From assembly GCA_964600235.1 (NCBI GenBank), contig CAZRIV010000010.1, positions 72,909-136,908 of the forward strand: a DNA stretch of 64,000 bases, written 5' to 3'. The notes beneath the pieces are model-generated. The model saw nothing but the letters and a program-made list of their open reading frames with translations. It did not search any database and was not told the origin of the DNA. Shown in pieces: positions 4,140 to 61,600 of this stretch. The DNA is from an uncultured Bacteriovoracaceae bacterium. Lineage in GTDB: Bacteria > Desulfobacterota > Desulfomonilia > UBA1062. The translations under genes and the position numbers were made by a program. How positions within the stretch are numbered: the first letter of the stretch is position 1; each line of letters begins with the position of its first letter.

Positions 4140-5792
4140 ATGGAGCGCATGCAGAGCAGGGGTAATATCCTTATTACGGTCATCGTGGTGGTCGCCATAG
4201 CCATGACCCTGTTCCTGATCGTACCCCTCGGGGGCAGGGTCGGGCAGCTCAGGGAAGCCACCATCTCATTCATCTTCAGGAAAACTCCCCAGTTCATTTC
4301 TCTTGAAGTCGAGGTGGATGGTGTGCGCAAGCTGATAAGGGCCGGCGATTCGGTGAAGATCAAGGGCGGAGAATCCTTCATTATCACCAGGGTCATGGCG
4401 AATACATTTTTCAATTCATATCTGGGTGTCGATGTCGTGGGCTTCGGCAAGCCCAATGACCTGAACGAGCCCATTGACACGGGTGAGATCCGCAACCAGC
4501 TCATAGCAGCCGGCATCAAATCGGTGCCTATAGATGTCTTCTACCTCGACCGCAAGATAGCCAAGGTCCCGCTGGAACTGGATCTGTCCCAGCAGGACTT
4601 CATGGATCAGATCAAGTCGGCCAAGAGCGACGAGGAAAGGATATCATTGCTGCGCTCCGGCCATGCAACCTTTCCGGGCAACAGCTTTTTCCTGGAGGAA
4701 CTCGAAAAACTCCTGGGTGCCAAGGAAGACTACCAGTCCCTGGTGGGGATCTACAAGAAGATCGTGGAGGCCGACCCTGCGAATGTGAAGGCATACTCCA
4801 GCCTGTCCCAGTTTTATATCAAACTGAAGAACTACGACGAGGCGCTCGCCATGTGCGCCAAGATCGTGGATGCAGGGAAGGCGGATGCGGTAATCTACCG
4901 GCGCATGGCTTATATCTCGGGTGAAAAGGGTGATTTCGAGAACAGGGTTGTATACCTGAGAAAGGCATTGGAGTTTGATAAAAGAAACGAGGCGGTGGTC
5001 GTCGACCTTGCCAAGACCTACGAACAGGCAGGAATGGACAAGCAGGCCCTGGATGTATACCAGTCCGCGTCCGATACCGCCAGGGACCGCGATATACTCA
5101 TCCCGCTGATCCAGAATGCCGTGAAGAAGGAAGATTACAAAAAGGCCGGCGACCTTCTGAAGCGCTATATCCAGCGCTACCCCCAGGATAAAAACGCACT
5201 GGCACAGCTTGGAATGGTCATGGGTAAACAGGGGGATACCAGGGCCCAGGAGGCATACTACCAGAGGGCAGCCGAGCTTTCGGGTAATGACAGCGTGCTC
5301 TGGTATAATCTGGGAGTCGCCCGCGAGAAACTGGGCGACGCCAAGGGCGCGTCTGATGCCTATGCAAAGGGCCTCCAGGCAAAGCCGGGCGATGTGGATC
5401 TGCTGCAGGGCGCTGCAGCCCTGTCATTGAAGCAGGGACGGTATAACGATGCATACACATATTACGCATCACTGTCGAAAAAGAGCCCCAGGAAGGAACA
5501 TCTCAAGGGGCTTGTCAGCGCATCCGTCGGGTTGAAGGATCAGGATAAGGTCATTGATGCATGCACACAGTTTCTGAAGAGCCACAAGGACCACGACGTA
5601 GCCATTGCACTCGGTTATGCCTACGAGGCTCGATCTGCGGGGCGCGACAGCCGGACCAGGCTGGATGACCTGAATAAGGCCCTGGAGGCATATCAGACCG
5701 CCAGGAAGATTAATCCAGCTTCCAAGGTTGCGGCCGGCAAGATCCCGGAACTCAAGATTGAAATCCTGAAGCTCAGGAAGGCCCGGCAGTAA
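4140..5792 (+). CDS. TPR-repeat protein with N-terminal transmembrane anchor
   Basis: 550 aa. N-terminal hydrophobic helix ILITVIVVVAIAMTLFLIV, followed by multiple 34-aa TPR-like repeats (motifs such as AxxYxxLGxxYxxxGxxxxA). Divergent from the pilin cluster. Confidence 0.6.
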   Translation: MERMQSRGNILITVIVVVAIAMTLFLIVPLGGRVGQLREATISFIFRKTPQFISLEVEVDGVRKLIRAGDSVKIKGGESFIITRVMANTFFNSYLGVDVVGFGKPNDLNEPIDTGEIRNQLIAAGIKSVPIDVFYLDRKIAKVPLELDLSQQDFMDQIKSAKSDEERISLLRSGHATFPGNSFFLEELEKLLGAKEDYQSLVGIYKKIVEADPANVKAYSSLSQFYIKLKNYDEALAMCAKIVDAGKADAVIYRRMAYISGEKGDFENRVVYLRKALEFDKRNEAVVVDLAKTYEQAGMDKQALDVYQSASDTARDRDILIPLIQNAVKKEDYKKAGDLLKRYIQRYPQDKNALAQLGMVMGKQGDTRAQEAYYQRAAELSGNDSVLWYNLGVAREKLGDAKGASDAYAKGLQAKPGDVDLLQGAAALSLKQGRYNDAYTYYASLSKKSPRKEHLKGLVSASVGLKDQDKVIDACTQFLKSHKDHDVAIALGYAYEARSAGRDSRTRLDDLNKALEAYQTARKINPASKVAAGKIPELKIEILKLRKARQ

Positions 5793-8052: not shown

Positions 8053-8394
8053 TCTCTTTGACGGTCTCCTTATCCTCACAATAATAATGAAACGGAAGGA
8101 ACATACAACTCTCTTCATAATAACGGATTTTCAGGTGCATTTCATGAGGGTTATTTTTTCATGCCGGATGAAGAGGCCAAATATTCTTGGCCGAATCTGA
8201 AGAAGATAATGCGAATTTGTGTCGTAACCCGAACCACCTGCAGGCCGTCCACGGGCAGTCTGCGTTGTCCATAACATCTTGTGTTCCGGGCGCCGGGCAT
8301 GACTGTTGTGCCGGGTTTTTTTCTGTGGAGAACCGTCTCTTTTCATGCAACATTTCTCTAAAGAAATTCCTGCGAACATCCGTTAAAAAGGGTG

Positions 8395-9201
8395 ATGCAA
8401 AAGCCTTGTCTTATGGAAAAGATCGAGCGGCAGATTGAGTGCATTCCGACGCTTGAGTCGAGCAGGATGAGACTCTTTAACGTTCTCCAGGGGGAGGGAT
8501 CCTCCATGGAGAATATCGAGCAGGTCATATCCAGCGATCCTGCCATGGCAGCCAAGGTCATCAAGCTGGCGAACTCGTCGTTCTACCGCCATGCCGACAG
8601 GCATGTGGGCATCCAGCAGGCATTACGCACCATTGGTCTTGACATGGTGAAAATCATAGCGTTGTCCATGGCTGTCATGGAGACCTTCGGCAATCAGACA
8701 CCCTCCATGAAGAAGCTCTGGGCGCACTCCTATGCGGTGGCATTCATCTCGGGAATACTCGGAGACTCGAAGGTCGAGAAGGAATGCCTCTTCACCGGGG
8801 GTCTTCTCCATGACCTGGGAAGGATGGTCCTGATATGCAAGACACCCGAACACTACCTGCCCCTGTGTGAATTCAGCGGGTGCTGGCCCGATGAGGCATT
8901 GGAGAGGGATGTTTTTGCCATGGACCACACCCAGATCGGCGAGATGATAGCCCGGCGGTGGCATTTTCCCCCTGAGGTCATAGGATTGATAAGGCATCAC
9001 CATAAACCTGCAAGCCATGCCTCTGCCCTTGTACATCTGACCGACCAGGTAGTCATGCAGTATGAAAAGGGTCTGATCTCGGAAGATTTTGAGCAGGATG
9101 CCCTCATCAGGGGCTACCTGGGCGATGAGTATAAAGATCTTGTAAATACTATTAGACAAAGGTATAGAACGAACACGTCTGTTTTTGAAAATTTGGGGTA
9201 A
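8395..9201 (+). CDS. HDOD domain signalling protein
   Basis: HD-related output domain pattern (AKVIKLANSSFY, HSYAVAF, GLLHDLGRMVL). Start ATG 8395 or in-frame GTG 8392. Confidence 0.65.
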   Translation: MQKPCLMEKIERQIECIPTLESSRMRLFNVLQGEGSSMENIEQVISSDPAMAAKVIKLANSSFYRHADRHVGIQQALRTIGLDMVKIIALSMAVMETFGNQTPSMKKLWAHSYAVAFISGILGDSKVEKECLFTGGLLHDLGRMVLICKTPEHYLPLCEFSGCWPDEALERDVFAMDHTQIGEMIARRWHFPPEVIGLIRHHHKPASHASALVHLTDQVVMQYEKGLISEDFEQDALIRGYLGDEYKDLVNTIRQRYRTNTSVFENLG

Positions 9202-9209
9202 GGGGCATT

Positions 9210-11336
9210 GTGTTTGCCGTGAAGGATCTGCACATTCTACGGGGCGAATCCGAAGAGTCTGATTCAACACGTGAAGAAATCCTGCTTGACCTGCTCAGCA
9301 AGGCCTCAGACTTCTATGAATACACGGTAGGCGTCTTTTCTTCCATCTTCGAGATCACCGAGTTTGTCTCAAAGGGTTCTCCCGAACGGGACTTTTTTTC
9401 CTATGTGACAGGCGTGCTCATCAAGGAGTCGAGGTGCGAAAACGCCTCCATTTTCATGGTGGAGGGTGAATCCGTCGTGCTCAAGGCGGCTTCAGGAATC
9501 GCCATCGGTAATGCAAATCCTCATGTGAGCATGGCCCTGGGAGATGGTGTGGCAGGGACCTGTGCCCGTGATGGAAAGACCATCCTTGTTCATGATGTGG
9601 AATCCTGCGACTTTTTCAAAAAGATGGATTCGGCGAAGGTCCTCATCGGGTCCATGCTGTGCGTGCCCATAAAAGAAGGAGGCCGGACACTGGGTATCAT
9701 GAACCTGTCCCATTCCGGCAAGGGTTTCTTCAATGTTCATTACGTGAGGGTTTTCGAACTCCTGGGCCTTCTCATCGGACAGATGCTGACCCTCGTACAG
9801 CTCTACGAGGTATTCCGGCGCAAGAATTCCGATCTGAGCAATCTTTTAAAGCAGAAAGACGATTCCTTGAGGAGTCTTACCGAGAGGTACAAGGCGGTCG
9901 TCGACGCATCAGAGGAGTTGATCTTCATCATAGACAGGTCAGGACGTGTCCTGTTCCTCAATGGCGCCCTGCAGGGGCTTCTCGTGAAGCCGCCGTTGAC
10001 GATCGCCGACATCTTCGATTCTGGGAGCAGTTCCTTTATTCTCGAAAGGATCTCACGGCAGGATACCGGGCATTCCACGGAGTTTGATCTCAATGTGAAG
10101 GTGGGAGACAAGGCCGATATGATCGGCCAGTTTTTTATGAAGCAGATCGATCCTGATCAGGTCCTCATAATCATTCGCGATGTCACGGCAAAGAAACGCA
10201 TTGAACAGAAGACCATGCAGACCGAGAAGCTTACCTCGCTGGGGCTCCTCACATCCGGGATAGCCCACGAGCTCAACAACAAGCTCACGCCCATCCTTGG
10301 ATTCGCCGACCTCATGGACCCCGAGTATCTGACTCCCCAGGATCAGAAGAGGCTTTCCGTTATCATCAATTCCGCGGCTGCCGCCAAGGGCATCGTGGAA
10401 TCGCTGCTCAAGTTTTCCCGGAACAAACCCCCGGAGAAGAATATATTCGACATGCGGGAAGTCATTAAGAGGACCATCAACCTCTACAGCCCGATCATCA
10501 AGAAACGGGGTATCACGGTCATCAGTGATGACCCGGAAGAGCCCCTGTTCATCAAGGCCGATATGAACTGCATGGAGCAGGTACTCGTGAATTTCATCAA
10601 TAACTCGATAGATGCCATTGACGAGCAGGAGGGTACCATCTGGATCAGGTCCTTCATCAGGGATGACTTCGTGCACGTCACCATCGAGGATACCGGTCCG
10701 GGCATTTCCCCGGGTGTCATGACAAAGATATTCGATCCCTTCTTCACCACCAAGCCCAAGGAGAAGGGCACCGGACTCGGGCTCTCCATCTGCTACGGGA
10801 TCGTTGCAGACCACAAAGGAGAGGTGTTCCTGGAGAATACGAAAAACGGCGCCATGGCCACCATGAGGATCCCTGCCGTCATGGATATGGATACGACGGA
10901 CAGAGACACTGCTGCAGAGAATAATCCCCCCTCCCTGCCGCAGGAGGGCAAACAGAGGCAGAGCCTGATCATGGTAGTGGAGGATGAGGCGGATCTCCTG
11001 GATCTCATGGTGGATACCCTGAGTCCGTACTATACGGTCGTCACCTTCGAGAACGGCAGGCGGGCATGCGATCATATTGATGAGTACTCATGGGAGCTCA
11101 TCATATCCGACCTGAGGATGCCGGTTATGAACGGCATGGAGTTCTACCACGAAGCCATCAGGATGAATCCGAACCTGAAAAAGAGATTCATGTTCATCAC
11201 CGGGGATACGTATGATTTTCAGGTGAAGGAATTTCTCGAGACCACCGGCGTAACCTATTTAAAGAAGCCTTTCCGGATAAAGGAATTGAAGGAATCGGTG
11301 CATAAGCACCTGCAATACTGGGCGGTAGAGGAATGA
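9210..11336 (+). CDS. Hybrid sensor histidine kinase (GAF - PAS - HisKA - HATPase_c - receiver)
   Basis: N-terminal GAF-like domain. H-box HELNNKLTPILGFADLM. G-boxes GPGISPGVMTKIFDPFFTTK and GTGLGLSI. C-terminal receiver LIMVVEDE...ISDLRMP. GTG start with AAGGGG SD. Confidence 0.8.
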   Translation: MFAVKDLHILRGESEESDSTREEILLDLLSKASDFYEYTVGVFSSIFEITEFVSKGSPERDFFSYVTGVLIKESRCENASIFMVEGESVVLKAASGIAIGNANPHVSMALGDGVAGTCARDGKTILVHDVESCDFFKKMDSAKVLIGSMLCVPIKEGGRTLGIMNLSHSGKGFFNVHYVRVFELLGLLIGQMLTLVQLYEVFRRKNSDLSNLLKQKDDSLRSLTERYKAVVDASEELIFIIDRSGRVLFLNGALQGLLVKPPLTIADIFDSGSSSFILERISRQDTGHSTEFDLNVKVGDKADMIGQFFMKQIDPDQVLIIIRDVTAKKRIEQKTMQTEKLTSLGLLTSGIAHELNNKLTPILGFADLMDPEYLTPQDQKRLSVIINSAAAAKGIVESLLKFSRNKPPEKNIFDMREVIKRTINLYSPIIKKRGITVISDDPEEPLFIKADMNCMEQVLVNFINNSIDAIDEQEGTIWIRSFIRDDFVHVTIEDTGPGISPGVMTKIFDPFFTTKPKEKGTGLGLSICYGIVADHKGEVFLENTKNGAMATMRIPAVMDMDTTDRDTAAENNPPSLPQEGKQRQSLIMVVEDEADLLDLMVDTLSPYYTVVTFENGRRACDHIDEYSWELIISDLRMPVMNGMEFYHEAIRMNPNLKKRFMFITGDTYDFQVKEFLETTGVTYLKKPFRIKELKESVHKHLQYWAVEE

Positions 11337-22631: not shown

Positions 22632-23280
22632 ATCCCCCTTTGATCCAGTACACCTGTACCGGATCCTGTACGAACACTACGGCCCTTCCCACTGGTGGCC
22701 CGGGGATACGCCATTCGAGGTGATGGTGGGCGCCGTGCTCACCCAGAACACGGCCTGGACGAATGTCGAAAAGGCCATTGCTAATCTCAAGGCTGCAGGC
22801 CTCCTCGATGCGGCTGCCGTTCATGATGCGGATCCGTCCTACCTGGCCGGCCTCTTAAGGCCCTCCGGGTATTACAATATCAAGACATCGCGCCTGAAAA
22901 ACCTCGTGCACATGATCATAACCTCTTACAGCGGGAACCTCGAAGAGCTCTTTTCCCAGGACCTTGACGTACTGCGTTCAGAGCTTCTCGAGGTGAACGG
23001 CATCGGCAAGGAGACTGCGGACAGCATCTGCTGCTATGCCGCAGGTAAATGCATCTTCGTGGTGGACGCGTACACGAAGCGTGTCCTCATGCGGCACGGC
23101 ATCATTGACGCTCATGCGACCTATGATGAGATCCAGGCCCTCTTCGAGGGCTCTCTGCCTCGAGAACTTGCGATATACAAGGACCTCCATGCCCATATCG
23201 TGTTCATCGGCAAGGACTACTGCAGGGCCGGGCAGCCCCGGTGCGATGCCTGCCCGATTAACGGGAAGATCGGGCTTTAA
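22606..23280 (+). CDS. Endonuclease III-like HhH-GPD DNA glycosylase with incomplete Fe-S cluster loop
   Basis: HhH-GPD region LLEVNGIGKETAD. C-terminal C-X6-C-X2-C, then the reading frame ends (PINGKIGL stop) without the fourth Cys. AAGGG SD. Overlaps the upstream gene by 26 nt. Confidence 0.65.
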   Translation: MSLPSVSPESPFDPVHLYRILYEHYGPSHWWPGDTPFEVMVGAVLTQNTAWTNVEKAIANLKAAGLLDAAAVHDADPSYLAGLLRPSGYYNIKTSRLKNLVHMIITSYSGNLEELFSQDLDVLRSELLEVNGIGKETADSICCYAAGKCIFVVDAYTKRVLMRHGIIDAHATYDEIQALFEGSLPRELAIYKDLHAHIVFIGKDYCRAGQPRCDACPINGKIGL

Positions 23281-23290
23281 CTCGGGTCTT

Positions 23291-23503
23291 GCGTTTGAAG
23301 GGGTATAAGAGCTTGATCCGTTAAAACAGGTGATCTTAAAGCCTTTGATGAGTGCATAATTTGCCGGTCATTTTAAGGCTTTAAGATCACCTGTTTTAAC
23401 GGACCGACAAAAACAAATCAGTTCACCACGAATCATCAGTTTAAGCACCTCTGGAGTACCCCTGGTGTGCATGGACACATTCAAATGCACAATCCGGTTT
23501 TAA
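23291..23503 (+). repeat. Structured intergenic repeat element, copy 1 (contains 29-nt inverted repeat)
   Basis: Aligns over its whole length with 26007-26224. Arms 23315-23343 and 23377-23405 are reverse complements. Confidence 0.8.
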
Positions 23504-23545
23504 TAATGTTGAAATACACGGCTGTTTGACCTAGAGGTTCTTGTG

Positions 23546-25517: not shown

Positions 25518-25928
25518 CTAACGCAGACGCGGACTTGAAAGCATGGCTTTATAGCTCTGATAATCAAGTTCCAGACGGGTATAGCTCTCCTGGGAAGTCC
25601 GGATGGAACCGTTGCAGACATCGATGGTGATGGGCCACATGCCTGTGTAGGCACCGGTGCATGGACCGATATGCAGGTTGCTGATGGAGAGATCGGTTAC
25701 CCCGAAATAACCCCCGGTTGTTTTGAGCCCCCAGGTATAATCTATTCCGAGTCCATCGGGGTCTCCCCATGCAATGACATCAATGTGAAGGCTCATGGTG
25801 ATATTCGGCATGATGCTCACGCCCGACCGGCCGCTGATGTTCGCGAGTTCCTCGTCCGAAAGCGGGCTCAACGCGAACACGGAGACTGGAAGTAACATGA
25901 ATGCGAGAAACAAGACGGCTTTTTTCAT
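25518..25928 (-). CDS. Hypothetical secreted protein
   Basis: Sec signal MKKAVLFLAFMLLPVSVFA followed by LSPLSDEELANISGRSG. No family recognised. Confidence 0.45.
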   Translation of the reverse strand: MKKAVLFLAFMLLPVSVFALSPLSDEELANISGRSGVSIMPNITMSLHIDVIAWGDPDGLGIDYTWGLKTTGGYFGVTDLSISNLHIGPCTGAYTGMWPITIDVCNGSIRTSQESYTRLELDYQSYKAMLSSPRLR

Positions 25929-26006
25929 GGGTTCCATGCCTCTATATATAACGGTTCGATAGGACGATGCAATAACATGCATGTGCATTGTATTAACCCC
26001 TATTTT

Positions 26007-26224
26007 GCGTTTGAAGGGGTGTAAAGACTTGATCCGTTAAAGCAAGTGATCTTAAAGCCTTCCAGGAATGCTGAATGTACCGGTCATTGAAAGGCTTTAA
26101 GATCACTTGCTTTGACGGACCTATAAAAAACAATTCAGTTCACCTGAGGAATTATCCGGTCAATGCGCTCCTTAAAGCGGATCGGGTGTGTATGGACACA
26201 TTCAAATGAACAGTCCGGGTTTAA
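26007..26224 (+). repeat. Structured intergenic repeat element, copy 2
   Basis: Homologous to 23291-23503. Arms 26031-26059 and 26093-26121, with compensatory substitutions relative to copy 1. Confidence 0.8.
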
Positions 26225-26362: not shown

Positions 26363-26806
26363 ATGGATCCAGTAAAAGTTGTCGTACGTCTCATCGACGG
26401 AAGAGTGATCAAGGGCTATTCCCAGAACTTCAATCCAAACCGGCCCTCGTTCCATATGAATGAGGAAGACGGAGGGAAGCCTCTCCATAATTCCATCCTC
26501 CTGGAGATGAAAGAAATCAAGGCGGTCTTCTTTGTGAAGACGTTTGAAGGTGACAGGGAATATGACGAAAGAAAAGATTTCATTCAGGGCGATCGCCTTC
26601 AGGGCCGGAAGGTCGAGGTGATTTTCGTTGATGATGAAGTCATCAGAGGTTCTACGGTCGGGTATGATCCTCAGCGACCCGGATTCTTTTTGATACCCGT
26701 AGATCCCCGGAGTAACAACATCAGGATCTTTGTAGTATCGAGAGCATTAAAGGACATTCGGTTCCTTGCGGAAGAGCAGAAGACCGCGCAGTACCGGTAC
26801 GGATGA
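26363..26806 (+). CDS. Hypothetical protein with internal tandem duplication
   Basis: 147 aa. Two related ~45-aa modules: VVVRLIDGRVIKGYSQNFNPNRPSFHM and VEVIFVDDEVIRGSTVGYDPQRPGFFLIPVD. GGAGG SD. Confidence 0.5.
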   Translation: MDPVKVVVRLIDGRVIKGYSQNFNPNRPSFHMNEEDGGKPLHNSILLEMKEIKAVFFVKTFEGDREYDERKDFIQGDRLQGRKVEVIFVDDEVIRGSTVGYDPQRPGFFLIPVDPRSNNIRIFVVSRALKDIRFLAEEQKTAQYRYG

Positions 26807-31416: not shown

Positions 31417-31493
31417 TGGCGCGCCCGACAGGGATCGAACCTGTGACCTTAGGCTCCGGAGGCCTACGCTCTATCCTACTGAGCTACGGGCGC
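31417..31493 (-). tRNA. tRNA-Arg (anticodon CCG)
   Basis: Minus-strand sequence GCGCCCG-TA-GCTC-AGTAGGATA-GAGC-G-TAGGC-CTCCGGA-GCCTA-AGGTC-ACAGG-TTCGATC-CCTGT-CGGGCGC-G-CCA folds as a cloverleaf with 7-bp acceptor stem, GTTCGATCC T-arm, anticodon loop CT-CCG-GA and encoded CCA. Confidence 0.9.
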
Positions 31494-54256: not shown

Positions 54257-56677
54257 ATGCAACTCTTGAGTCCAAGATCCATCCTTGCACAGGTCAAGGG
54301 GATCTCTCTGAGATGGAAGATAAACCTCATGGGGATACTCATCATCCTCATTTTTTCCATCATCATCTATTTCCTCATTCTGCCTTACATGGAAAGAGAA
54401 AAGATCGAGGAGCGTCACGGCAAGCTCAGGGCCGTGGTCAACTCCGCGGTATCCATGATGGACAATTATGAACGGGCGCTGCGCAGAGAGGCCTGGAAGA
54501 AGGATCCCTCCATGCCCAGGACCATGGAGGAAGCCAAGGCAATGATCATAAAGAGCCTTCGCGAGATGCGCTATGACAAGACAGAGTACTTCTTCATCCT
54601 GGACGGCAACGGCAACATGGTCATGCACCCCATGAAGCCGGAGCTCGAGGGAAAGAATATGATCGGGGCGAAGGACCCGAAAGGCAAGGCCCTGTTTCAG
54701 GAAATGGTCTTCAACTCCCAGAGGGACACGGAGACCTTTGTAAGCTATATATGGCAATCCAAGTACAGCCCGGTGATTCTCGAACCCCAGATAACCTATG
54801 CCAGATATTTCTGGCCCTGGGACTGGGTTGTATGCTCCAGTCTGTATACGCAGGATATCGCCGATGCCATGCGTACCATGGCGATACGTTCCACTATCTA
54901 TGTCGTTGCCACGGCCGTCGTCACCATCCTGGCCCTGTTGACCTTGGTCTATCTCGGGCTGTCAAGACCCCTCAGGAAGCTGCTCGCCGGTATCCACGAG
55001 ATCCACAGCGGGAACCTGGACTATCGTATCGATACGGCTTCCCAGGACGAACTCGGGTACATATCACGGGAATTCAACTCCATGATCTCGGAACTGAAAG
55101 GGAGCAGGGACAACCTCATCAGGTCGGAAGGCAAATACCGGGAACTGGCCGATCTGTTGCCGGATATCATCTACGAGAGTGACATGGACCTGAATATCAC
55201 CTACCTCAACAATGCGGGATACTCCCTGACCGGATACACGGAACAGGACATCCAAAACGGTTTATCAATGAGTGATCTCTTAAGCGCTGAAGACCTCAAG
55301 ATATTCCTCGAGAGAGTACAGGATGACAAGTCCCGGAAATTCCTTTCCGTTCATAAGATTATCAGAAAAGACAAGAGCATCATCTTTGGTGAGAACAATG
55401 GCAGCGTGATGTATGAAGGAGAGGTCCCGGTGGGGTTAAGGGGCAGCATCCGAGATGTTACGGATAAGCTCAAGATGGAAGAACAGATCATCCAATCCCA
55501 GAAGATGGAGACCATCGGCACCCTGGCGGGGGGTCTGGCGCACGACTTTAACAATGTCCTGGCAGGCATCACCAGCACGCTGTCCATAATACGCTACGAG
55601 ATGGACAGGGAAAAGAATCTGGACATGAATAAGCTTTCAAAGCATCTCACTACCATGGAGAAAGCCGGCCAGCGAGCCGTGGACATGGTCCAGCAGCTCC
55701 TCACCCTGTCCCGCAGGCGCGAGGCCCAGGTAGCCCCTGTAAACCTGAACTCCACCGTCGAAGATGTCGTGAAGATCTGCACCAATACCTTTGATCGGTG
55801 CATAGACATCAAGATCGAAAAAACACACGAAAAGGCCATGGCCGAAGGAGACCCGACGCAGATCGAGCAGGTGCTCCTGAACCTCTGCGTGAATGCAAGC
55901 CACGCCATGACCATGATGAGGCCAAAGGGGGAGCCATCCGGAGGGAGACTTATCGTCTCCCTGGACAAGATATGCGCCGATGAGGGTTTCTGTTCAGTCC
56001 ACCCCGAATCCAGGAAAACGGATTACTGGAAACTCTCGGTAAGGGATACCGGGGTGGGTATGGACCACAATACTCTCTCGAAGATATTCATCCCCTTCTT
56101 CACCATGAAGGAAAGGGGCACGGGCACCGGGCTCGGTCTGTCCATGGTTTATACCATTGTCCAGCAGCACAATGGGTTCATAGATGTCTACTCGGAGCCG
56201 GGTGTGGGTTCCACCTTCAATGTCTATCTCCCGGTGGCCCACCTGGAAGAGATGGGAGAGGGGCGGAAAATGGAGCCGGAGGTACCCAGGGGCGAGGGGT
56301 TGATACTCGTGATCGATGATGAAGAGGTGCTCCGCAGGACTGCCTTGTACATGCTGGAAAAATGCGGATACGAAGTTATCACCGCAGAAAACGGCGAGGA
56401 GGGGGTAAGGATCTTCAAGGAGCGGCATCATGAAATCCGGGCCGTGCTGACCGACCTTGTCATGCCCAAGAAATCGGGCGAGCAGGTTTACCTGGAGATG
56501 AAGGCGATAAACCCTGAAATCAAGGTGTTGCTGACATCGGGTTTCAAACAGGATGACAGGGTCAACCTCGCCTTGGGCTACGGGATCAGGGGCTTCATCC
56601 AGAAGCCCTATACCCTGGAAAAGCTCTCACAGGCCATGGCGGATTTATTATCTGGTATCTCATGCAGTGCGGGGTGA
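54257..56677 (+). CDS. Hybrid sensor histidine kinase (TM - single Cache - TM - HAMP - PAS - HisKA - HATPase_c - receiver)
   Basis: Periplasmic Cache-like region YFFILDGNGNMVMHPM. H-box HDFNNVLAGI. G-boxes GTGLGLSMVY. C-terminal receiver LILVIDDEE...LTDLVMPKKSG. Confidence 0.8.
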   Translation: MQLLSPRSILAQVKGISLRWKINLMGILIILIFSIIIYFLILPYMEREKIEERHGKLRAVVNSAVSMMDNYERALRREAWKKDPSMPRTMEEAKAMIIKSLREMRYDKTEYFFILDGNGNMVMHPMKPELEGKNMIGAKDPKGKALFQEMVFNSQRDTETFVSYIWQSKYSPVILEPQITYARYFWPWDWVVCSSLYTQDIADAMRTMAIRSTIYVVATAVVTILALLTLVYLGLSRPLRKLLAGIHEIHSGNLDYRIDTASQDELGYISREFNSMISELKGSRDNLIRSEGKYRELADLLPDIIYESDMDLNITYLNNAGYSLTGYTEQDIQNGLSMSDLLSAEDLKIFLERVQDDKSRKFLSVHKIIRKDKSIIFGENNGSVMYEGEVPVGLRGSIRDVTDKLKMEEQIIQSQKMETIGTLAGGLAHDFNNVLAGITSTLSIIRYEMDREKNLDMNKLSKHLTTMEKAGQRAVDMVQQLLTLSRRREAQVAPVNLNSTVEDVVKICTNTFDRCIDIKIEKTHEKAMAEGDPTQIEQVLLNLCVNASHAMTMMRPKGEPSGGRLIVSLDKICADEGFCSVHPESRKTDYWKLSVRDTGVGMDHNTLSKIFIPFFTMKERGTGTGLGLSMVYTIVQQHNGFIDVYSEPGVGSTFNVYLPVAHLEEMGEGRKMEPEVPRGEGLILVIDDEEVLRRTALYMLEKCGYEVITAENGEEGVRIFKERHHEIRAVLTDLVMPKKSGEQVYLEMKAINPEIKVLLTSGFKQDDRVNLALGYGIRGFIQKPYTLEKLSQAMADLLSGISCSAG

Positions 56678-58652: not shown

Positions 58653-61600
58653 ATGAAGAATGACTTCCACGACCACGAGAACCCTCGGGAGGTGGAGCGA
58701 CTCCACCAGGAACTGAGATGCCTTCACGAGGTGCAGGAGCAGACCTCCAGAAGCGAAGATCTTTACCGCACCATCTTCGAGACTGCCGGCACCGCCATCA
58801 TCACCATAGACAGCGATACGACCATCAGGCTCGCCAATTCCAATTTCGAGAAACTCTCTGGGTACAGCAAGCTCGAACTCGAAGGCATCATGAAATGGAC
58901 CGTGTTCATTGCAGAAGAAGACCTCGAGCGCATGAAGACATACCATGAGCAGCGCAGGATCGACCAGACACTGGCACCCAGTGAATATGAATTCCGTTTT
59001 GTCGACCGGTCCGGCCGGAAGAAGGATATCCTTTTGAACATCGCCATGATACCGGGGACCCAGCAGAGCGTTGCTTCCTGCATGGATATTACGGCCAGAA
59101 AGAACTTTGAAGAGGCGCTGCGTTTGAGCGAGGAGAATTACCGCAACATCCTTTCGACCATCCAGGAAGTCTATTACGAAGTGGATCTGAAAGGCAATTT
59201 CACCTTCTTCAACCCCATGGCATGGAAGGCCCTGGGCTATGCAGAGGAAGAGCTTACAAACATGAACTTCCGCAAATACATGGACACCGACAATATTCGA
59301 AAGGTGTTCGATGTATATCATAAGGTATACATGTCCGGCGAGTCCGTGACGGCCATGGAGTTCGACGCCATAAAGGCAAACGGTGAGAGGCTGCCGGCAG
59401 AGGCCTCCGTGTCATTACGTAAGGACGCACACGGCGAGGTTATCGGGTTCAAGGGCGTTGTCAGGGATATCAGCCGACGAAAGGAATCCGAGACGGCAAT
59501 GCGCCGGAGCGAGGAGCGCTATCGGCTCATGGCCGAGAACTCATCGGATGTAATCTGGACGCTCTCCCTGGATGGCATGCTTACCTATATAAGCCCCTCA
59601 ATCAAGGCCTTTTCAGGCTACGATCCCGACGAACTCATCGGGAAGGGGATCGATAAAATCCTCACGCCGGAGTCCTGTTCCTTTGTGAATAACACACTCA
59701 TGAGGGAATTGGTGGCCAAGTCCGAGAAGCATGGCCAGGCCGGACGGTTTGAACTGATAATGAAAACCAGGGACGGCACCATCAAGAACATCGAGGTTTC
59801 CACCACCTGGATACTGAATGACAAAAGAGAACCGGTGGGTCTCCAGGGTTCCACCCGCGATATAACCGAGCGCAAGCAGGCCGAAGAGGCCCTGCGCCGG
59901 AGCGAGGAAAAGTACCGCAATATACTTGCGAGCATCCAGGAGGGATATTTCGAGACGGAACTGCAAGGCCACTTCACCTTTTTCAATGACTCCTTCTGCG
60001 CCATGGTAGGATATCCGCCTGAAGAGGTGAAGGGCTGCAGTTACAAGAAATTCGTTGACGAGGAGACGGCCCGCAAGATCTATGATGTCTTTCACAATGT
60101 CTTTCTCACGGGCAAACCGGATAAGGGTTTTGACTGGTTTGTCGTAAGGAAGGAAGGCCTGAAGCTGGACATTGAAAGCTCCGTGACCCTCATGAGAGGA
60201 CCGGAGGGAGAACCCACAGGATTCAGAGGGGTCATGCGCGACGTCACCGAGCGCAAAAAGGTCCAGGAGGCGCTCCGGTTAAGCGAAGAGCGGTTCCGGG
60301 ATCTGGCCGAGCTCCTCCCCGAGACTGTTTATGAAGCAGACCTGGACGGACGGCTGACCTTTGTGAACAAGAGCGGCCTCGAGCGTTTCGGATACAGGGA
60401 AGCCGATATCGTTCAAGGCCTTCAGATGAGAGATGTCATTGCGAGGGACGATCTTCCCGGGATGGAAGTGAGCCTGGGGAAGATGTTCAAGGGCGAAAAG
60501 ACAGGGCTCATGGAATATACCATGGTACGCAAAGACGGGAGTACCTTTCCCGGGCTTGCGCACTCGGCACCCATCCTGCGTGGAGGGGTCGCTGCGGGCA
60601 TCCGCGGCTTCGTCGTGGACATTTCGGACAAAAAGAATCTCGAAGCCCGGCTGCTGAATGCCCAGCGCATGGAGTCCATCGGCACCCTGGCGGGAGGGAT
60701 AGCCCACGACTTCAACAACCTGCTCATGGGCATCCTGGGAAATGTCTCACTGGTGATGATGGGCATGGATGAGACGCATGCCGTCCATGCCCGCATGAAG
60801 AACATCGAGACGTACGTCAAGAGGGCGAGCGACCTTACTCAGCAGCTCCTGGGATTCGCCCGGGGCGGGAAATACGATGTCAGAACCATGGACCTTGGGG
60901 AGTTTATCAGGAAAAGCACGGACATGTTTGCCCGTACGCATAAGGAGATACGGGTGCAGACGCTCATGGGAGACGGGATCTGGCCTGTTGATGCGGACCG
61001 GAACCAGATGGAACAGGTCATGCTCAATCTTTACATGAATGCCCGGCAGGCCATGCCCTCGGGCGGAGACCTGTATGTTGCCGTAGAAAACACGGTACTT
61101 GAAGGCAGCCACGCGTTCTCATGTGAACTGACCCCCGGAAAATATGTGAAGATTACCCTGCGGGATACAGGTATCGGGATGGATCAGGCAACCAAGTCCC
61201 GTGTCTTCGACCCGTTCTTCACCACCAAGGAAATGGGCAGAGGGACAGGACTCGGTCTCGCGTCCGTATATGGGATCGTGAAGAATCATGGCGGGCATAT
61301 CGGAGTGGAGAGCGAGGTCGGGTTGGGAACCGAGTTTTTCATCTACCTGCCGGTCTCCATGAAGAAAGGGGAGAGCGAAGCGTCTTCCCGGAAGGATACA
61401 CTGGAAAGATCCGGCTTCATCCTCCTGGTGGATGACGAAGACATGATCCTGGAAGTGGGCTCGGCCATGCTTGAGAGCATCGGCTATAAGGTGATACAGG
61501 CCAGGGGAGGAAAGGCCGGTATTGAGGAGTTCAGGAAGCGCCACTTTGAGATAGACCTGGTAATCCTTGACATGATCATGCCTGATCTGTCGGGTAGAGA

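Follow-up and report, generated by a model that had tools for sequence, protein, structure and literature searches.

The window analysed here is a stretch of 64,000 nucleotides of contig CAZRIV010000010.1 (positions 72,909 to 136,908, forward strand) from the assembly GCA_964600235.1 of an uncultured Bacteriovoracaceae bacterium (GTDB lineage Desulfobacterota; Desulfomonilia; UBA1062), and our subject is a short repeated element that occurs in it twice, near the gene mnmG. By a MnmG homologue search and exact-protein look-ups the window was assigned to an uncultured, sulfate-reducer-like organism of Desulfomonilia type within the Desulfobacterota. The order of features at this locus is an HhH-GPD gene (endonuclease III-like, + strand), copy 1 of the element, mnmG (+), a DUF6160 gene (- strand), copy 2 and a DUF6982 gene (+). 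Copy 1 (23277-23503, +) reaches from a left TTAA at 23277-23280, which contains the TAA stop codon of the HhH-GPD gene, to a right TTAA at 23500-23503, and is separated from mnmG by 40-43 nt. Copy 2 (25993-26224, +; left TTAA 25993-25996, right TTAA 26221-26224) occupies the spacer from which the DUF6160 and DUF6982 genes diverge, 138 nt from the open reading frame (ORF) at 26363. A preliminary description of this DNA had reported two + strand copies, 75-80% identical end to end, at these distances from the two downstream genes. Alignment of the copies (MAFFT, BLAST) bore this out, with 78-79% identity over ~221 nt; 23289-23503 matches 26005-26224 end to end, and the similarity was found to extend slightly beyond the limits given earlier, from TTAA to TTAA at both copies.

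Including a third copy on another contig, which is described below, the unit is 227-235 bp long and has a G+C content of 41-43%, compared with 55% for the window. It has no coding capacity: stop codons occur throughout all six frames, the longest ORF is 58 aa, and the database proteins that match the element are spurious ORFs called on other copies of it and nothing else. From 5' to 3' the unit is composed of a left terminal repeat, an 18-nt spacer, a 29-bp stem with a 29-nt loop, an A-rich tail, a variable segment of ~50 nt, a small hairpin and the right terminal repeat. The ends are imperfect inverted repeats (~20/29 identical) with a 10-bp core, TGCGTTTGAA / TTCAAATGCA, and the ends of the element read TTAAC..TGCGTTTGAAGGGG. 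In copy 1 the left core (TGCGTTTGAA, 23290-23299, +; 10 pairs, with the imperfect repeat reaching TTAA) is followed by the 5' arm of the hairpin (23317-23345, +, 29 nt), a 29-nt loop (23346-23374, +) with a GGTCATT that is kept in all copies, the 3' arm (23375-23403, +, 29 nt), which is 100% complementary to the 5' arm, the A-rich tail CCGACAAAAACAAATCAGTTCACC directly 3' of the hairpin (23404-23427, +) and the right core (TTCAAATGCA, 23480-23489, +). The corresponding parts of copy 2, likewise on the + strand, are the left core TGCGTTTGAA (26006-26015), the 5' arm (26033-26061), the 3' arm (26091-26119) and the right core TTCAAATGAA (26201-26210); an inverted-repeat search also scored this copy as 94% complementary at 26033-26064 / 26088-26119. 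The 29-nt inverted repeat had been recognised earlier, as had the common 3' tail and an internal CAGTTCACC, both of which we found in the two copies. The arm coordinates, however, had been placed 2 nt off, which accounts for the ~33-nt spacer reported at the time; the measured spacer is 29 nt. Neither the repeat nor the hairpin is attributable to chance, since the folding z-scores against shuffled sequences are -9.1 (copy 1) and -8.3 (copy 2), a 26-mer of the arm has four matches in the window where none is expected, and the probability that both altered sites of the 5' arm have altered, complementary partners is ~1e-3.

A promoter-consensus scan returned seven matches, two of which lie symmetrically at the element ends and face outward; both are promoter-like as consensus matches only. 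TTCAAA-16-AATAAT (23480-23507, +) points towards mnmG, and its -35-like TTCAAA is part of the right core of copy 1, whereas TTCAAA-17-TACAAT (26015-25987, -) points towards the DUF6160 gene, its TTCAAA being the - strand of the left core of copy 2. A candidate sigma-54 promoter in the 3' tail (TGGACACATTCAAATGCA) was rejected, its GG-to-GC spacing being 12 and not 10 and its GC being gone in copy 2, and so were an integration host factor site and a DnaA box in the 3' half, for which inspection by eye gave poor, non-conserved matches.

The history of the two copies was reconstructed from relatives ranked by the identity of their MnmG proteins, namely L009 and L010 (95%), L007 (83%) and L008 (79%). 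Comparison of the loci established each window copy, at the level of sequence, as an insertion relative to close relatives. Copy 1 is present in L009 and L010, where it is 95.6-96.3% identical to the window copy, and both of these have an exact empty site at the position of copy 2, between the DUF6160 and DUF6982 genes. Here the window contains 228 additional bases that span copy 2 exactly, and the flanks of the empty site rejoin as ...TTCTAAGG... / ...GTGCGTTTTTTCTAAGGCAGC.... Nothing similar to the repeat was found at the orthologous locus of L007 or L008. The element is thus absent near mnmG in L007 and L008 and near the DUF6982 gene in L008, L009 and L010. In L007 the HhH-GPD gene overlaps the start of mnmG; in L008, 51 nt lie between these two genes, and the DUF6982 gene is directly 3' of mnmG. 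Straight after the HhH-GPD stop codon L008 keeps the right flank of copy 1 (ATGTTGAAAT...GTTTGACCTAGAGG...GATGGAA), and therefore the native sequence upstream of mnmG is older than the repeat and copy 1 is an insertion. It now stands between nth and mnmG, two genes that abut or overlap in relatives. Copy 2 would have entered the window's lineage, or been lost by excision from its sister, once the relative with 95% MnmG identity had split off, at a depth that corresponds to ~5% divergence of the element. It nevertheless differs from copy 1 by 22%, so that its donor was probably another member of the family, and more copies should exist or have existed.

Copies 1 and 2 are flanked by TTAA on both sides, CTAA stands at the empty site, and the flanks of copy 3 are TGAA (left) and TTAA (right); the TTAA and CTAA flanks presumably fit the TA- or YTAR-type targets of insertion sequence (IS) families. 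The left flank of copy 2 (25977-25996, ATGCATGTGCATTGTA-TTAA) shares ATGCATGT..TTAA with a site ~40 nt to the left of copy 3 (L034, ~4846-4866, - strand, GTATGCATGTTC-TTAACCGG), a common motif that could be due to chance, to a target preference or to a remnant of another end.

The third copy was reached through a spurious ORF of 46 aa, read from the minus strand of copy 2, which matched a 67-aa hypothetical protein (P0121, E 9.6e-8) in a search of a representative protein library of 1.84 billion entries. The contig that encodes this protein, L034, holds a full copy of the element at 4573-4807 (-), between an OmpA-like gene with a terminator and a UDP-glucose dehydrogenase gene, and this copy, too, is co-oriented with its downstream gene. 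L034 comes from Joint Genome Institute (JGI) sample 3300045917, as does L002, a contig that carries the locus of the window. Pairwise identities are 78% between copies 1 and 2, 82% between copies 2 and 3 and 72% between copies 1 and 3. All three copies are co-oriented with the gene downstream and lie 40-140 nt upstream of its start (P ~0.125). A profile search of a set of 5.8 billion proteins returned only P0121 and the ORF on copy 1 of L002, and no further copy was found in the window (with filters off) or in 232 kb of loci with nhmmer and a covariance model of the core. The search for additional members that the preliminary description had proposed was therefore successful in part: one more copy was located, with no others in the 232 kb of loci or in the collections scanned.

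A single sequence resembling a hairpin arm was observed at 8379-8407 (+). It is 24/29 identical to the arm of copy 1, with E 0.004 in BLAST and E ~0.15 in nhmmer, and was missed by the covariance model, so that its membership of the family is uncertain. It keeps the family-invariant blocks TCCGTTAAA, GTGAT and AAAGCCTT, has no partner arm, and is located 7 nt upstream of the ATG of an HDOD-like ORF (8414) and 3' of a terminator-like hairpin at ~8289-8322. It may be a decayed copy or a motif with a role of its own.

Taken together, we interpret the repeats as copies of a small, AT-rich, non-coding mobile element of the MITE type (miniature transposable element with inverted repeats), with imperfect terminal inverted repeats and TTAA flanks, a reading to which we assign a probability of about 0.7. 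A hairpin-bearing MITE had been among the suggestions made earlier, and it gained support from the insertion polymorphism, the terminal inverted repeats, the TTAA flanks, the AT-richness, the lack of coding capacity and the occurrence of the element at a third, unrelated locus. Most of the features by which MITEs are recognised were found: a size below ~600 bp, no coding capacity, terminal inverted repeats and presence or absence with exact boundaries. Two other origins for a pair of repeats were rejected. A segmental duplication of a promoter region does not agree with the unrelated context of copy 3 and the exact boundaries of insertion, and a composite transposon made of two direct copies flanking mnmG-DUF6160 does not agree with L007, which has the genes without the copies, or with L009, which has copy 1 only.

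Several observations weigh against this interpretation. The loci found number only three, of which the window has two and L034 one, and L034 may come from a different genome than the locus of the window. A scan for both termini (CGTTTGAAGGGG N160-190 CATTCAAATG) in the genomes of 185,579 species of bacteria and archaea, one per species, gave four matches, all by chance, and a scan for the top of the stem (GTGATNNNAAAGCC...GGCTTTNNNATCAC) in JGI metagenome contigs gave 23 unrelated terminator-like hairpins and no member of the family; viral contigs (two scans) and plasmids and phages (distant blastn) had no match. Within the window, no IS or transposase with corresponding ends came to light. 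For the target duplication there is more than one candidate, since TA, TAA/TTA, TTAA or a target combined with a conserved element end all fit. The terminal repeats are weak beyond the 10-bp core, and the 10-pair terminal stem is 95% paired in the four sequences compared and includes two broken cells and no compensated change. Finally, the outward promoter boxes are altered in copy 3 (TTGAAA, TCCAAA). As for the scans, the pattern with both termini was too strict, because the 3' block varies in L009 (CGTTCAAATG). The window's own copies fit both patterns and are unmatched in both collections, and therefore the source organism is evidently absent from them. A chimeric 699-aa query of six-frame pieces gave no match at E<=10 in a word-indexed protein search, in which chance words likely swamped the candidates.

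Some features of the assemblies were also observed. Two independent short-read assemblies break in or just after the hairpin of copy 1 (L001:1, equal to window position 23412, and L010:1, equal to window position ~23384). Such breaks fit a disruptive palindrome or repeat, so copies of the element may be under-represented in contigs. In L002 (6808-8600) two ORFs stand in place of an intact mnmG, and alignment of copy 1 with the window shows 6 gaps. These are indel-type assembly errors; single-base indels in L002 and L034, including those at the ends of copy 3, therefore need caution.

The hairpin itself was compared between copies and between orthologues. Copies 1 and 2 differ in the 5' arm at positions 10 (A>G) and 13 (G>A) and in the 3' arm at positions 20 (T>C), 17 (C>T) and 24 (A>G). 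These differences make two fully compensated pairs, A-T>G-C at position 10 and G-C>A-T at position 13, exactly as the preliminary description had claimed, and the single T.G wobble on the + strand of copy 2 that it had also noticed, which falls at arm position 6. The stem of copy 3 is perfect and differs from that of copy 1 at arm positions 10, 12, 13 and 21, with every change matched on the opposite side. All 29 pairs are formed in each of the four sequences (100%): 24 are invariant, 4 have changed on both sides, 1 is a wobble and 0 are broken. When the partner column was slid by 1-3 positions the pairing fell to 19-47%, and 0/500 shuffles reached the observed covariation score or percentage paired. 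Between orthologues, copy 1 of the window and that of L009 differ by 10 substitutions, of which 0/91 are in the stem and loop and 10/138 (~7%) elsewhere; the probability of the unchanged hairpin is ~0.0055 conditional on 10 changes and 2e-5 at the four-fold rate, which is 11.2% divergence at the four-fold degenerate sites of mnmG. The block that is unchanged between these orthologues also takes in the A-rich tail.

Two independent lines of sequence comparison, one from paralogues and one from orthologues, thus indicate that the internal hairpin is under constraint. Selection on a structure had been proposed from the two window copies; that proposal was strengthened by the four compensated pairs, the lack of broken ones and the absence of substitutions in the orthologous hairpin, and the covariation check over the four sequences gave matched changes in the arms, with no random arm substitutions in the third copy. 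The constraint may act on RNA or on DNA, and folding of the hairpin is equally good for both strands and for the DNA form. The argument for the + strand that had been drawn from the wobble is weak: the events of G.U type number three (one in the stem and two in the terminal stem), all of which are G.U on the + strand (P ~0.125).

It is possible, though we consider it rather unlikely, that the conserved part of the element functions as a small RNA, or as a regulatory module made of RNA, that rides on the mobile element and is kept by selection at the level of the host, not by transposition. The 115-nt core, made up of the hairpin, the conserved loop and the A-rich tail ending in TCAGTTCACC, would then be a mobile structured RNA module, spread as a MITE and kept in the host by purifying selection, that provides the adjoining genes, in the + strand transcript, with a signal for RNase III-type processing, insulation or stabilisation, or with the precursor of a small RNA. 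The lack of substitutions in the hairpin as compared with 7% elsewhere and 11% at four-fold sites, the four compensated pairs, the + strand sense of all three G.U-type events and the common orientation of the 3/3 copies upstream of gene starts are consistent with such cargo. Other observations argue against it. No intrinsic terminator was found at the element by a terminator scan, there being no U-tract 3' of the hairpin on either strand, and no conserved internal promoter was found by a promoter scan and inspection of the alignment. In Rfam no family reached the gathering score for the element, and at E<=10 the search returned generic hairpins of microRNA models far below threshold. In addition, a perfect 29-bp duplex is atypical of trans-acting bacterial small RNAs, and the statistics of strand and of orientation are weak with three copies (P ~0.125 each).

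The perfection of the palindrome could also be a by-product of DNA metabolism, maintained during replication by gene conversion from arm to arm or by template switching within a strand, with no selection on the fold. Quasipalindrome correction through template switching renders arms complementary, and arms that are perfect or nearly so in every copy, together with folding that is equal on both strands and as DNA, are what such a process would leave. We find this explanation doubtful, and less likely than RNA cargo, as it accounts neither for the conservation of the 29-nt loop and the 24-nt tail between orthologues nor for the fact that the sole imperfections are G.T on the + strand.

Improbable is a derivative of a single-strand (peel-and-paste) transposon of the IS200/IS605 or REPIN type, in which the hairpin would be the recognition structure of the transposase and TTAA the fixed target on whose 3' side the element inserts, with no true duplication. 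A subterminal hairpin under structural constraint, the fixed TTAA-like left flank, the conserved TTTAA as the last bases of the element and the same orientation of 3/3 copies relative to the neighbouring genes are compatible with this mechanism. However, the terminal inverted repeats of the element, with their 10-bp core, have no counterpart in the IS200/IS605 and REPIN families; the element carries one large hairpin in place of related left-end and right-end hairpins, and its 29-bp stem is far longer than the known recognition hairpins of TnpA or RAYT. No RAYT gene was called in the annotated neighbourhoods, and a Y1 transposase gene was not seen. REPINs resemble the element in their long hairpin of two inverted arms and in the maintenance of arm symmetry, but a REPIN consists of nothing beyond its hairpin, is bounded by neither terminal inverted repeats nor a target motif, and comes with an associated RAYT gene. 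In the present case the insertion comprises 228 bp in full, with conserved sequence on both sides of a hairpin that takes up ~87-91 nt, and an assignment to REP or REPIN was rejected. Last, the idea that mnmG and the DUF6982 gene share a conserved riboswitch or cis-regulatory leader, duplicated with a promoter, was suggested at first by the position of both window copies just upstream of + strand genes, and is ruled out because of the empty sites: the element is missing before mnmG in the 83% and 79% relatives, which keep mnmG and its upstream sequence, and before the DUF6982 gene in the 95% relative and L008, copy 2 is an exact 228-bp presence or absence, the third copy is upstream of an unrelated gene and Rfam has no match.

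With a MITE-like element as the preferred interpretation, we compared it with known systems. Bacterial MITEs are AT-rich elements of 100-250 bp with stable stem-loop transcripts (PMC10969869), and the transcripts of MITEs generally form very stable stem-loops (PMC3184786, PMC10969869). Chunjie, a MITE of Geobacter uraniireducens, is 178-235 bp long with 21-bp inverted repeats (Chen et al. 2008, via PMC3184786 and PMC10969869). Like the window element, it occurs in the former delta-proteobacteria, belongs to the same size class, is A+T-rich with very stable predicted RNA folds and has copies both in intergenic regions and inside an operon. It differs in its 9-bp direct repeats, compared with the TTAA/TA-centred 2-4-bp motif of the window element, and in its dozens of copies, compared with the three found here; an internal perfect 29-bp hairpin apart from the terminal repeats is not described for Chunjie, the two having been compared by description. 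Correia elements (CREE) of Neisseria insert at TA and are recognised by 26-bp inverted repeats, a site for integration host factor and processing by RNase III. They make promoters at their ends and are bound by RNase III (PMC2649163). As in the model proposed below, CREE are small non-coding elements with inverted-repeat ends, whose transcript duplex is bound or cut by RNase III and which alter the expression of neighbours. In CREE, however, the duplex comes from the terminal repeats of a 100-155-bp element, whereas in the window element it is internal and the terminal repeats add ~10 bp; the two belong to different phyla, and the likeness, by analogy, would be one of mode of action only. In the bcr1 repeats of the Bacillus cereus group, compensatory changes maintain the structure of the RNA (Klevan 2007 and Kristoffersen 2011, via PMC3184786). 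They are ~155 bp long and flanked by short direct repeats and, similarly to the window element, are mobile and variable in position between strains, but they differ in host, sequence and architecture, and transcription is known for bcr1, whereas the window element is known from its sequence alone.

In a working model, the element would be moved in trans by a DDE transposase encoded elsewhere in the genome and would insert at TA-centred sites, TTAA or CTAA, fitting YTAR. It is probably co-transcribed with its neighbours, because the copies are oriented with the downstream gene and copy 1 lies inside the tight nth-mnmG pair. The + strand RNA may fold into a long duplex that serves as a processing or stability element, either as an RNase III-type substrate or as an insulator of the mRNA, and such a duplex might benefit the host or the element through RNase III-type processing or through insulation or stabilisation of the transcript. 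The ends may in addition supply outward -35 boxes (TTCAAA). As an alternative to a role in RNA, the hairpin may be needed for transposition or propagation itself.

Several further features of the region and of the window were noted. The DUF6160 gene (25518-25928, -) is present in the window, L007, L009 and L010 and absent in L008, and L007 has a different 205-aa gene where the DUF6982 gene sits elsewhere. The ORF at 26363, earlier described as a tandem-repeat hypothetical protein, is the DUF6982 protein (147 aa, 26363-26806, +), which does consist of two similar halves, VVRLIDGRVIKGYSQNFNPNRPSFHM and VIFVDDEVIRGSTVGYDPQRPGFFL. Families of direct repeats in coding sequence occur at 59085-59908 (+) and at 10731-10804 / 56087-56160 / 61206-61279; these look like repeated modules of sensor or histidine-kinase domains, not mobile repeats. 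A tRNA gene (31420-31493, -) is the sole Rfam match at gathering score in the window.

On the best reading, the element represents a new MITE-like family that is neither a REPIN nor an Rfam family, its kin having been compared by description. The general phenomenon is already known elsewhere in bacteria (Correia, ERIC, bcr1, Chunjie). The seemingly conserved RNA in front of mnmG turns out to be a mobile element that inserted there not long ago, and a false annotation as a riboswitch or small RNA is thereby avoided. The family also provides a clean, dated case of structure-preserving evolution in a bacterial MITE, with 4 compensated pairs and a hairpin unchanged across ~11% neutral divergence, and the element is usable as a strain marker in metagenomes. 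If the hairpin works as RNA, the element would be a portable module, acting after transcription, by which operons such as nth-mnmG are rewired, and would be useful for understanding gene regulation in the poorly studied Desulfomonilia-like bacteria. If the idea of a mobile RNA module is true, an uncultured lineage of the Desulfobacterota would have in this element a post-transcriptional regulator that can transpose.

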